DNA from: a virus
Direction: 5' to 3' (one strand)
Virus record (IMG/VR): IMGVR_UViG_3300045988_119030
Span: 85,411 to 149,410 of that record
Length of the DNA: 64,000 nt
The notes below the pieces were generated by a model. That model made no database searches. It was not told the DNA's origin and saw nothing but the letters and a program-made list of their open reading frames with translations. Shown here one piece after another: positions 50,912 to 50,998 of the stretch (position 1 is the first letter of the stretch; each line of letters starts with the position of its first letter). The translations under genes were made by a program, and so were the position numbers.

Positions 50912-50998
50912 GCCCCGCTGGGATTCGAACCCAGAACGACTCCTTCAAAGGGAAAACGGTTTTAGAGACCGCCGTGTTAACCGTTACACTACGGGGCA
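50912..50998 (-). tRNA. suppressor tRNA, anticodon CUA (reads UAG), type II
   Basis: U-A-GUG-UAACGGUUAA-CAC-G-GCGGU-CUCUAAA-ACCGU, about 21-nt variable arm, CUGGG-UUCGAAU-CCCAG, acceptor GCCCCG/CGGGGC with U1-U72 mismatch, discriminator G, no encoded CCA. Confidence 0.65.

Follow-up and report, generated by a model that had tools for sequence, protein, structure and literature searches.

A phage amber suppressor tRNA with a putative copy of the glutamine anticodon loop in its variable region

Gut phages that read UAG as glutamine (genetic code 15) are the closest described counterparts of the system considered here, a tRNA with the anticodon CUA encoded in a stretch of viral DNA of 64,000 nucleotides (IMG/VR record IMGVR_UViG_3300045988_119030, positions 85,411 to 149,410), hereafter called the window. 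For comparison we used the papers of Borges et al. (bioRxiv 10.1101/2021.08.26.457843) and Peters et al. (PMC9523058), the paper on phAss-1 (PMC10607447) and a screen of 213 phage suppressors (PMC12636597). Our phage is like code-15 gut phages in carrying its CUA tRNA in a tRNA array and in having TAG codons in fibre-like and lysis genes and none in the visible replication genes (GyrA/B, ligase, PhoH). Glutamine at TAG and the lack of a dedicated synthetase in the visible region of this phage are further likenesses. What differs is the long variable region with an anticodon-like loop, which a full-text search did not find described in the accessible text of these papers. How a suppressor tRNA keeps its identity after losing the cognate anticodon is left open in the literature; Borges et al. 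leave suppressor charging explicitly open. The hairpin described below offers a concrete, testable answer to this question.

Class-II tRNAs also have a stem-loop between the anticodon and T arms. Unlike them, the CUA tRNA has a D stem of 4 base pairs, five nucleotides after the arm and a conserved 7-nucleotide loop. Mutants of su+3 tRNA-Tyr(CUA) at positions 1, 72 and 73 reportedly become glutamine acceptors, and the similar combination of CUA, a broken 1:72 pair and G73 would favour glutaminyl-tRNA synthetase (GlnRS). In the E. coli thrS mRNA operator and in plant-virus tRNA-like structures a hairpin shows the cognate anticodon bases to the anticodon-binding domain of a synthetase. In contrast to those, the putative mimic reported here is situated inside a working tRNA, beside a second arm that decodes. 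Allo-tRNAs and nematode nev-tRNAs (PMC5389517, PMC3333845) are similar to the CUA tRNA in that the anticodon mismatches what the body suggests. However, they have true class-II bodies with non-Ser/Leu anticodons and anticodon-blind SerRS or LeuRS, whereas the body of the CUA tRNA appears to be class I; moreover, allo-tRNAs have 8/4 or 9/3 acceptor/T helices and the CUA tRNA has 7/5. The last system to be compared is the theta ribozyme (Kienbeck et al. 2024, PMC10879173). Our locus resembles it in a putative HDV-like (hepatitis delta virus) core almost without P4, placed 2 nucleotides after the discriminator of a suppressor without CCA, and in a weakly DRB0094-like RNA ligase. It differs in that the Rfam HDV match is under the gathering score here.

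The tRNA gene and its extra hairpin

ARAGORN predicts the CUA tRNA at 50909..50998 on the minus strand, and the Rfam model RF00005 (positions 1-71 aligned) matches 50910..50998 with 56.2 bits against a gathering score of 29. The tRNA has 89 nucleotides up to the discriminator G73 (50910), and its anticodon is at 50963-50965. A sequence-only reading of the window had proposed a UAG-decoding suppressor tRNA at this place. The anticodon loop CUCUAAA and the acceptance of the fold by both programs support the proposal, but its limits, 50912-50998, need correction: the gene ends at 50910, and it is on the minus strand.

The acceptor strands are UGCCCCG (5′) and CGGGGCU (3′), the latter followed by the discriminator G, and positions 8-9 are UA. 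The D arm is GUGU-AACGGUUA-ACAC and has a G after it at position 26. The anticodon arm GCGGU-CUCUAAA-ACCGU has a 7-nucleotide loop on a 5-base-pair stem, with U33 and a purine at 37. The variable region of 21 nucleotides is UUUUCCCUUUGAAGGAGUCGUU, and the T arm is CUGGG-UUCGAAU-CCCAG. The cloverleaf is complete, with canonical U8, G10, G18G19 and TΨC bases and a 7/5 arrangement of acceptor and T helices; the sole deviation from a canonical tRNA is the U1•U72 mismatch, which leaves 6 of 7 acceptor pairs. In the sequence-only reading the anticodon loop, T arm, acceptor pairs, discriminator and length of the variable region had been described in the same way. The D stem had been given as 3 base pairs, but U13 and A22 can pair, which makes it 4 base pairs with an 8-nucleotide loop. 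The folding energy is not distinctive by itself (z = −1.18); that the tRNA is real follows from the covariance-model score and from conservation. The CUA tRNA has no encoded CCA, unlike 23 of the 25 further tRNAs of the window; ARAGORN counts 26 tRNA genes in total, all on the minus strand at 35.4-60.2 kb.

The label “tRNA-Pyl” (pyrrolysine) given by ARAGORN mirrors the anticodon only. tRNA-Pyl has a 3-nucleotide variable loop, a 6-base-pair anticodon stem and a tiny D loop; with its 21-nucleotide variable region, 5-base-pair anticodon stem and 8-nucleotide D loop the CUA tRNA has a different shape, and this identity was rejected. No Pyl genes turned up among about 40 larger open reading frames (ORFs) of the window scanned against Pfam or NCBIfam.

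Copies with at most 2 substitutions occur in six IMG/VR contigs of 159-197 kb (L002, L005, L009, L015, L016, L018) and in one contig of a metagenome-assembled genome (MAG; L266). Aligned flanks of these seven copies are mostly 91-98% identical to the window, and the gene order Val-Sup-Tyr is kept in the six IMG/VR contigs. It is hardly credible that the gene is a non-functional tRNA relic and that TAG is read by an agent outside the window. The U1•U72 mismatch, the missing CCA and the fact that, of about 160-200 kb of genome, only 64 kb are visible would suit a relic, but the full cloverleaf with canonical bases and 56 bits would not, and neither would the near-identity of the tRNA across seven related genomes, given that their aligned flanks have mostly diverged by 2-9%. 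In addition, many members of the CUA tRNA family have a 1:72 pair that is weak or mismatched, and a dedicated putative ribozyme adjoins the 3′ end of the tRNA.

Regarding the possible origin of these contigs, L266 is the 163,874 base pair contig CAMELE010000001.1, labelled “uncultured Mollicutes bacterium”. It has an identical suppressor tRNA and about 96% identity to the window at 49.7-56.0 kb, and is probably the phage genome, which has ended up in the bin of a bacterial MAG. Further members of the CUA tRNA family come from contigs with the bin labels Erysipelotrichaceae, Bacillota, Eubacteriales and Nanosyncoccus, a possible hint of the host. Megablast of 24 kb of the window against the phage collection gave no match.

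The main finding is an extra hairpin of 15 nucleotides (50940..50954, minus strand) between the anticodon stem and the 5-nucleotide variable loop UCGUU (50935-50939). Its stem is UUCC/GGAG and its 7-nucleotide loop is CUUUGAA (50944-50950). The centre of the loop, UUG (50946-50948), is the anticodon of tRNA-Gln, and it is flanked by a U33-like and an A37-like base. CUUUGAA is also a genuine anticodon loop of tRNA-Gln in the phage tRNA set, where the commonest is CUUUGAC. Viral contigs were scanned with no constraint other than a CUA anticodon loop, a T loop and a long spacing between the two, which gave at least 120 loci; together with further loci they amount to at least 43 distinct CUA tRNAs whose variable region has 17 nucleotides or more.

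Among the matches listed, to which the following counts for this family refer, a hairpin loop of the form N-U-(CUG or UUG)-A-N is present in 40 of the 43 distinct long-armed CUA tRNAs. The common design of the 40 is a linker of 0-5 nucleotides, a short stem, a 7-nucleotide loop, about 5 nucleotides and the T arm. When 34 distinct hairpins are aligned without gaps, U35′ and G36′ never vary, and A37′ is conserved to at least 90%. The wobble base, C or U, is the sole variable position of the triplet, giving exactly both glutamine anticodons. The stem pairs covary (C-G, G-C, U-A and A-U), and 33 of the 34 hairpins form the pairs at ±4 and ±5. There are 28 cells changed on both sides, the observed covariation score was reached by none of 500 shuffles, and slid registers score far lower. 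The three CUA tRNAs without such a loop (L119, L125, L126) have Ser-like class-II bodies. Note that SerRS ignores the anticodon. As a control, U[CU]UGA was found in 1 of 138 ordinary Ser/Leu/Tyr arms, and ordinary class-II arms of the same contigs mostly lack a hairpin with a 7-nucleotide loop and have no dominant triplet. An alternative register with a 3-base-pair stem and a UUGA tetraloop, which is the RNAfold optimum, was ruled out by the covariation in the family.

It is likely, to judge by these alignments, that the hairpin loop is a selected copy of the glutamine anticodon loop. Full-text literature searches, whose coverage was incomplete so that prior work is possible, did not turn up a phage tRNA described as having an anticodon-like loop in its variable region. 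Likewise, no anticodon-mimic arm appears in the available passages of the theta-ribozyme paper (where the word “variable” is absent), the Borges preprint and the suppressor-screen preprint. A suppressor tRNA, TAG-to-Gln recoding and a ribozyme partner are known kinds already. Apparently new is the mimic of an anticodon loop in the variable region, recurring for Gln, Trp and Ile.

The recurrence was seen when equivalent scans of viral contigs were run for UCA and UAU anticodon loops. All seven long-armed, G73-type UCA tRNAs that are not of the selenocysteine (Sec) kind (opal tRNAs of contigs L160, L175, L203, L209, L220, L223 and L245) carry U-CCA-A, the anticodon loop of tRNA-Trp, in the extra hairpin; in L220 the loop is exactly CUCCAAA. 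By eye, the D arms of these seven tRNAs are of three kinds: class-I-like, Leu/Ser-like and Sec-like. The third case is tRNA-Ile(UAU), of which 74 distinct forms with long variable regions were found (contigs L293-L412, e.g. L293, L309, L336). In 65 of the 74, GAU, the standard anticodon of Ile, is the centre of the best hairpin with a 7-nucleotide loop. In those 65 the hairpin is a near-complete second anticodon arm with stems of up to 5 base pairs and loops such as CAGAUUA. Position 33′ is often A and not U, which makes decoding by that arm unlikely.

Two observations argue for selection and against a fossil of ancestry: the rule recurs in three cases on different scaffolds, and the loops are kept while their stems covary. 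We therefore consider a more general proposal, to which we give an even chance: phage tRNAs whose decoding anticodon differs from the one read by the synthetase carry a second, non-decoding identity arm that shows the cognate anticodon (CUG/UUG for Gln, CCA for Trp, GAU for AUA-reading Ile), as a portable module that uncouples decoding from synthetase recognition. The CUA tRNA of the window would belong to this group. If true, such an arm would answer how suppressors of recoded phages get charged by unmodified class-I synthetases of the host.

Isotype of the tRNA body

When the 15 nucleotides U45-G59 are taken out of the CUA tRNA, a tRNA of 74 nucleotides is left, the size of a class-I tRNA, with a 4-base-pair D stem, an 8-nucleotide D loop, a 5-nucleotide variable loop and A15:U48. 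By the variable arm, for which class II requires a stem-loop longer than about 10 nucleotides, the CUA tRNA would be class II (21 nucleotides with a 4-base-pair stem and a 7-nucleotide loop). By its core, with a 4-base-pair D stem and UCGUU after the hairpin, it is not. Position 15:48 fits the class-I Levitt pair in 29 of the 40 long-armed family members. The sequence-only reading had derived this tRNA from a Ser/Leu/Tyr-type tRNA and not from tRNA-Gln; these features do not support such an origin, and they warn in general against reading the long variable arm of a phage tRNA as Ser/Leu/Tyr ancestry.

Whole-tRNA sequence identity gave no isotype, as the nearest non-suppressor neighbours are a mixture of Lys, Trp, Asn and Gln tRNAs. 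The isotype was judged from the acceptor end and the core features instead. In the phage tRNA set, tRNA-Gln has U1:A72 in 17 of 26 sequences and discriminator G in 16. The corresponding pair is G1:C72 in 49 of 65 tRNA-Ser (discriminator G in 51) and in 13 of 18 tRNA-Tyr (discriminator A in 18/18), while in 99 tRNA-Leu it is G1:C72 in 50 and G1:U72 in 28 (discriminator A in 92). The long-armed CUA family has U1 in 28 of 40 and discriminator G in 29 of 40, with 1:72 mostly weak or mismatched, again among the matches listed. According to these patterns the acceptor end of the CUA tRNA resembles Gln, or Trp, but not Ser. The discriminator G, earlier taken as Ser-like, belongs together with U1 and a weak or mismatched 1:72 pair to the phage tRNA-Gln pattern. 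G73 excludes the patterns of Leu and Tyr, and U1•U72 differs from the G1:C72 of phage tRNA-Ser.

The identity set of E. coli GlnRS consists of a weak 1:72 pair, G73, G2:C71, G3:C70, G10, U35, G36, A37 and U38. In the CUA tRNA, U1 (mismatched with U72), G73, G2:C71, G10, U35 and A37 are present. G3:C70, G36 and U38 are absent (they are replaced by C3:G70, A36 and A38); the rules of the host may differ from those of E. coli. Class-I CUA suppressors from contigs L007, L012 and L014 share G26 and have an anticodon arm and a T arm identical to those of the CUA tRNA of the window. These suppressors have U1 mismatched with position 72, G73 and a 5-nucleotide variable loop at the site where the window tRNA has its insertion. 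Taken together, the CUA tRNA very probably has a class-I, Gln-type body into which a hairpin has been inserted.

A class-II suppressor that comes from tRNA-Ser, tRNA-Leu or tRNA-Tyr and is charged by SerRS (through G73 and the long arm), TyrRS or LeuRS, so that UAG would mean Ser, Tyr or Leu, is very improbable. The 21-nucleotide variable region and G73 are what such a tRNA might have, and a tRNA-Tyr(GUA) with a similar anticodon arm is situated about 575 nucleotides away. The sites at UAG treated below also contain one TAG at a conserved tyrosine and one TAG↔TAC change, and genuine Ser-like or Tyr-like CUA tRNAs exist in other phage contigs (L126, L125, L004). However, a class-II tRNA would have one or two nucleotides after the arm instead of five, and its D stem would not be expected to have 4 base pairs. 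U1•U72 stands in place of G1:C72, U11:A24 in place of the C11:G24 of the E. coli Ser set, and A73 is absent. With the hairpin removed, the CUA tRNA is 73% identical to the tRNA-Trp of the window and 55-64% identical to its Ser, Leu and Tyr tRNAs. Finally, Ser, Leu and Tyr are below the eight best residues over 20 TAG columns, of which three are near-invariant for Gln.

Descent from the neighbouring tRNA-Tyr(GUA) was considered separately, as the two anticodon arms are near-identical. It was rejected: tRNA-Ser(UGA) and tRNA-Trp(CCA) have the same stem, identity to tRNA-Tyr is 61-64%, and there is no A73.

True class-II bodies are found among CUA tRNAs of other phages (L119, L125, L126; L004, L068; L073, L106). 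They are Ser-like, with G73 and a GGCAGAGCGG-type D arm, or Tyr-like or Leu-like, with A73, and none has an anticodon-mimic loop. In some other phages UAG may accordingly stand for Ser, Tyr or Leu.

Glutamine at UAG and the possible role of the hairpin

About 20 minus-strand ORFs of the window have an in-frame TAG after the start codon. The sequence-only reading was right that many genes read through TAG; its “dozens” is too high, as the credible genes number about 20. Single Pfam domains continue across TAGs, namely Phage_lysozyme2 (2-140 of 140, six TAGs), NAGPA and ALK_LTK_GRD. In ORFs of at least 150 codons there are 231 CAA, 128 CAG and 63 TAG codons. TAG-bearing genes are mostly those of lysis (lysozyme/amidase), fibre-like and NAGPA proteins, and the predicted coding regions of GyrA/B, DNA ligase, PhoH and RNA ligase have no TAG. 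Such enrichment of TAG in late, structural and lysis genes, together with support from conserved columns, agrees with what is published for code-15 recoded phages. The summed length of ORFs under different sets of stop codons could not tell reassignment of TAG from that of TGA, and domains spanning TAG and conserved columns were used instead.

The residues aligned with TAG were read by local BLASTP from homologues of three proteins, giving 20 TAG columns in four protein families; a global MAFFT alignment of the lysozyme matches misaligned the domains, whose order differs, and local columns were used for this reason. Over the 20 columns the summed log-odds are +16.8 for Q, the sole positive residue, and −2.3 for the next one, M. 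The first protein is a tail lysozyme with amidase (13482..14783, minus strand), which has 8 in-frame TAGs, Phage_lysozyme2 extending across six of them, and Amidase_2. At its residue 146, in the motif FERPxxQ, TAG aligns with Q in 105 of 106 distant homologues. The second is a nuclease-like protein with a DGxQH motif (5320..5886, minus strand; 3 in-frame TAGs), where Q is found in 113 of 113 homologues at residue 127. In the third, a glycine-rich fibre-like protein (60315..61625, minus strand; 4 in-frame TAGs, one of them spanned by ALK_LTK_GRD), the site ECWGA-TAG-GG has Q in 109 of 112 homologues.

Homologues may themselves derive from recoded phages whose TAG had been translated as Q by gene callers, and the DNA of the Q codons was checked for this reason. 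The conserved Q is CAG in a TAG-free Muribaculaceae homologue of the lysozyme, CAA at the TAG position in the window's own paralogue of the nuclease-like protein (25214-26014), and CAA in a TAG-free homologue of the glycine-rich protein (ECWGAQGG; L413/L414, 177-kb contig). Close relatives of the window show the TAG↔CAG change three times and TAG↔CAA three times, and CAA is two mutational steps away from TAG. In a Listeria-Bacteroides repeat protein (Flg_new; 48234..49727, minus strand; 8 in-frame TAGs) the orthologues have CAG or CAA in place of TAG at two sites and TAC at one.

We have little doubt, on the strength of the aligned columns, that UAG is read by a functional amber suppressor that inserts glutamine. 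The amino acid, left open in the sequence-only reading, is narrowed by the conserved columns: they point to Gln, none supports Ser or Leu, and Tyr is seen at one conserved site only. Gln as the inserted residue is thus predicted from alignments. Tyrosine was also considered at ECWGA-X-GG, as a paralogue has ECWGG-Y-GG, and was rejected because of the Q in 109/112 homologues and the CAA of the TAG-free homologue; YL-X-TGG alone stays Tyr-like. The latter site is codon 231 (motif YLYTGG) of a paralogous glycine-rich protein (61607..63019, minus strand; 5 in-frame TAGs).

GlnRS, TrpRS and IleRS all read the anticodon. The CUA anticodon removes G36, the base that is read by Gln-charging enzymes. 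The extra hairpin would present an intact Gln anticodon loop to GlnRS of the host, or to a non-discriminating GluRS with GatCAB. Glutamine identity would thus be kept while the canonical 5-base-pair arm decodes UAG on the ribosome. Another conformer can be imagined, in which the extra hairpin and not the CUA arm stacks under the D stem; the idea comes from the resemblance of the 5 nucleotides after the hairpin to an ordinary class-I variable loop. Both the identity role of the hairpin and charging by a Gln enzyme are inferred, and for the hairpin loop as a synthetase identity element the sequence comparisons leave the balance about equal. The whole explanation, a Gln-inserting suppressor with a class-I Gln body, an anticodon-mimic hairpin for charging and a ribozyme-made 3′ end, is the one that we favour with moderate confidence. 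If it is true, codon reading and synthetase recognition are naturally separated in one tRNA, annotators gain a sequence signature that predicts the amino acid of a phage suppressor, and engineered suppressor tRNAs gain a design principle.

Several observations weigh against this explanation. The only data pointing away from Gln are the TAG at codon 231 of 61607..63019, where Tyr is found in 110 of 120 homologues and for which we have no explanation beyond a tolerated TAY-to-TAG change, and the single TAG↔TAC change in 48234-49727. In the glycine-rich family, relatives in which gene callers had translated TAG as Q may contribute to the Q signal. Another suppressor or a tRNA-Gln may lie outside the 64-kb window of this genome of about 160-200 kb. 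The hairpin of the window has only 4 pairs, one of them U•G, and RNAfold on the single sequence favours a 3-base-pair stem with a 4-nucleotide loop. As the hairpin is identical in all seven copies of the clade, covariation comes from more distant relatives only. MAG binning hints at a Bacillota/Mollicutes host, and many Bacillota/Mollicutes are without GlnRS. Established structures show GlnRS on that face of the tRNA which lies opposite to the variable region, and without a rearrangement it is not obvious that one and the same GlnRS molecule could recognise the arm. Class-I CUA suppressors without the hairpin exist, sometimes in the same contig. In E. coli extract glutamine was inserted by 28 of 29 phage tRNA-CUA and tryptophan by 13 of 13 tRNA-UCA, according to the screen (PMC12636597); these figures agree with Gln and Trp identity of such tRNAs. 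Hairpin-less suppressors and the charging of many phage CUA tRNAs with Gln by E. coli enzymes mean, however, that the arm is not obligatory.

The last points lead to an alternative in which the suppressor inserts glutamine and the hairpin has no identity role, being a leftover of an anticodon-arm duplication or a stabiliser; identity would come from U1•U72, G73 and U35 only, as in classical amber suppressors charged by GlnRS. The acceptor-end signature shared with the hairpin-less class-I CUA suppressors, the general Gln charging of phage CUA tRNAs in the extract and the binding geometry of GlnRS all agree with it. We regard it as unlikely, though deserving serious attention, because a neutral relic would decay: U35′ and G36′ stay invariant, A37′ nearly so, and the stems compensate, while the rest of the tRNA diverges. 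The rule of the cognate anticodon moreover holds in UAU tRNAs and in separate UCA tRNAs, the D arms of which visibly differ.

A second alternative makes the hairpin a bait for a factor that does not charge tRNA, such as a tRNA-Gln-specific anticodon nuclease or modifying enzyme of the host, or a phage protein timing the code switch. Evolution of phage tRNAs against defences that target tRNAs is known (PMC10264068), and genes of RNA-repair type are encoded in the window. The arm is, however, tied to tRNAs whose decoding anticodon is not the cognate one (CUA/Gln, UCA/Trp, UAU/Ile). A decoy for a nuclease would be expected on ordinary tRNAs too, and ordinary long-armed Ser, Leu and Tyr tRNAs of the same contigs have no dominant loop triplet. 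This makes the bait quite improbable, and charging through the hairpin remains our preferred explanation.

The 3′ end and the surrounding genes

Two nucleotides after G73 an HDV-like “theta” ribozyme is predicted (Rfam RF02682; 50854..50908, minus strand). The match has 26.1 bits, under the gathering score of 44, and covers the whole model (1-74), with most positions of the P4 region unmatched; its E-value is 0.0014 in a search of 83 nucleotides and 0.043 in 2.6 kb. Assigned by hand against the known HDV architecture, the core would consist of P1 GGUGCUA/UAGCACU (G1•U), L3 UCCUCGC, P1.1 GG, J4/2 GCUAA and P2 AAACAAA/UUUGUUU, with hardly any P4. Placed on 50854-50908, these elements would give the nested double pseudoknot of the HDV type, in which P1 has 7 base pairs, P3 carries a C-rich L3 and J4/2 contains the catalytic C. 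The ribozyme is identical in all seven copies and hence shows no covariation. A crude theta-ribozyme descriptor matched only next to the tRNA of this clade, which says little about other family members.

Cleavage 5′ of G50908 would leave tRNA-G73-C74 with a 2′,3′-cyclic phosphate, and this end would then have to be healed and completed to CCA. Cleavage by a ribozyme abutting the tRNA would explain why the CUA tRNA lacks an encoded CCA. Both cleavage and 3′-end repair are predicted here from the sequence. In the theta-ribozyme paper (PMC10879173), theta ribozymes are reported to adjoin phage tRNAs on their 3′ side, and suppressors make up one in five of these tRNAs; only 4.5% of them encode CCA, and DRB0094-type RNA ligase is enriched in theta-ribozyme phages. 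An RNA ligase of the window (23836..25221, minus strand; Pfam RNA_ligase E = 3.6e-06) is weakly DRB0094-like, with 37.8 bits for TIGR02306 against a cut-off of 151. It could conceivably take part in healing the 3′ end of the tRNA.

A TAG-free block of minus-strand genes at 17000-36000 has an RNA-repair/ribonucleoprotein flavour. It includes the RNA ligase just described, an RlaP-like nucleotidyltransferase (27735-28541), a major-vault-protein-like gene (30743-33241) and a DUF2828/DUF7788 gene (33721-35289), all on the minus strand, as well as NADAR, a weak DarG-like match, three metallophosphoesterases and a flotillin-like SPFH protein. Long ORFs of the opposite strand overlie several of the block's genes.

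The minus strand of the window also has some unusual tRNA-like elements. One of them, at 51261-51459, is a tRNA-Glu(UUC) that ARAGORN predicts when introns are allowed; an insert of 123 nucleotides interrupts its anticodon loop after position 36. Two hairpins can be recognised in the insert: CCGGU-CUUAUAA-AACCG (UAU), which resembles an anticodon arm, and GUUGG-UGCAAGU-CCAAC, which resembles a T arm. A group I intron would have to be longer than this insert, and the gene is called neither by default ARAGORN nor by Rfam; the region lies within aligned blocks of related contigs. At 52060-52135 there is a sub-threshold Rfam tRNA match (24.5 bits, E = 0.042), which ARAGORN does not call even when relaxed. 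A tRNA-like gene at 60165-60235 has a 6-nucleotide anticodon loop, AUUUAA, and no CCA; it is given by ARAGORN as tRNA-?(Lys|Stop) and has no Rfam match at the gathering threshold. Directly downstream of tRNA-Leu(UAA), at 37561-37689, there is a RAGATH-33 RNA (Rfam RF03102, 123.3 bits against a gathering score of 120.4).

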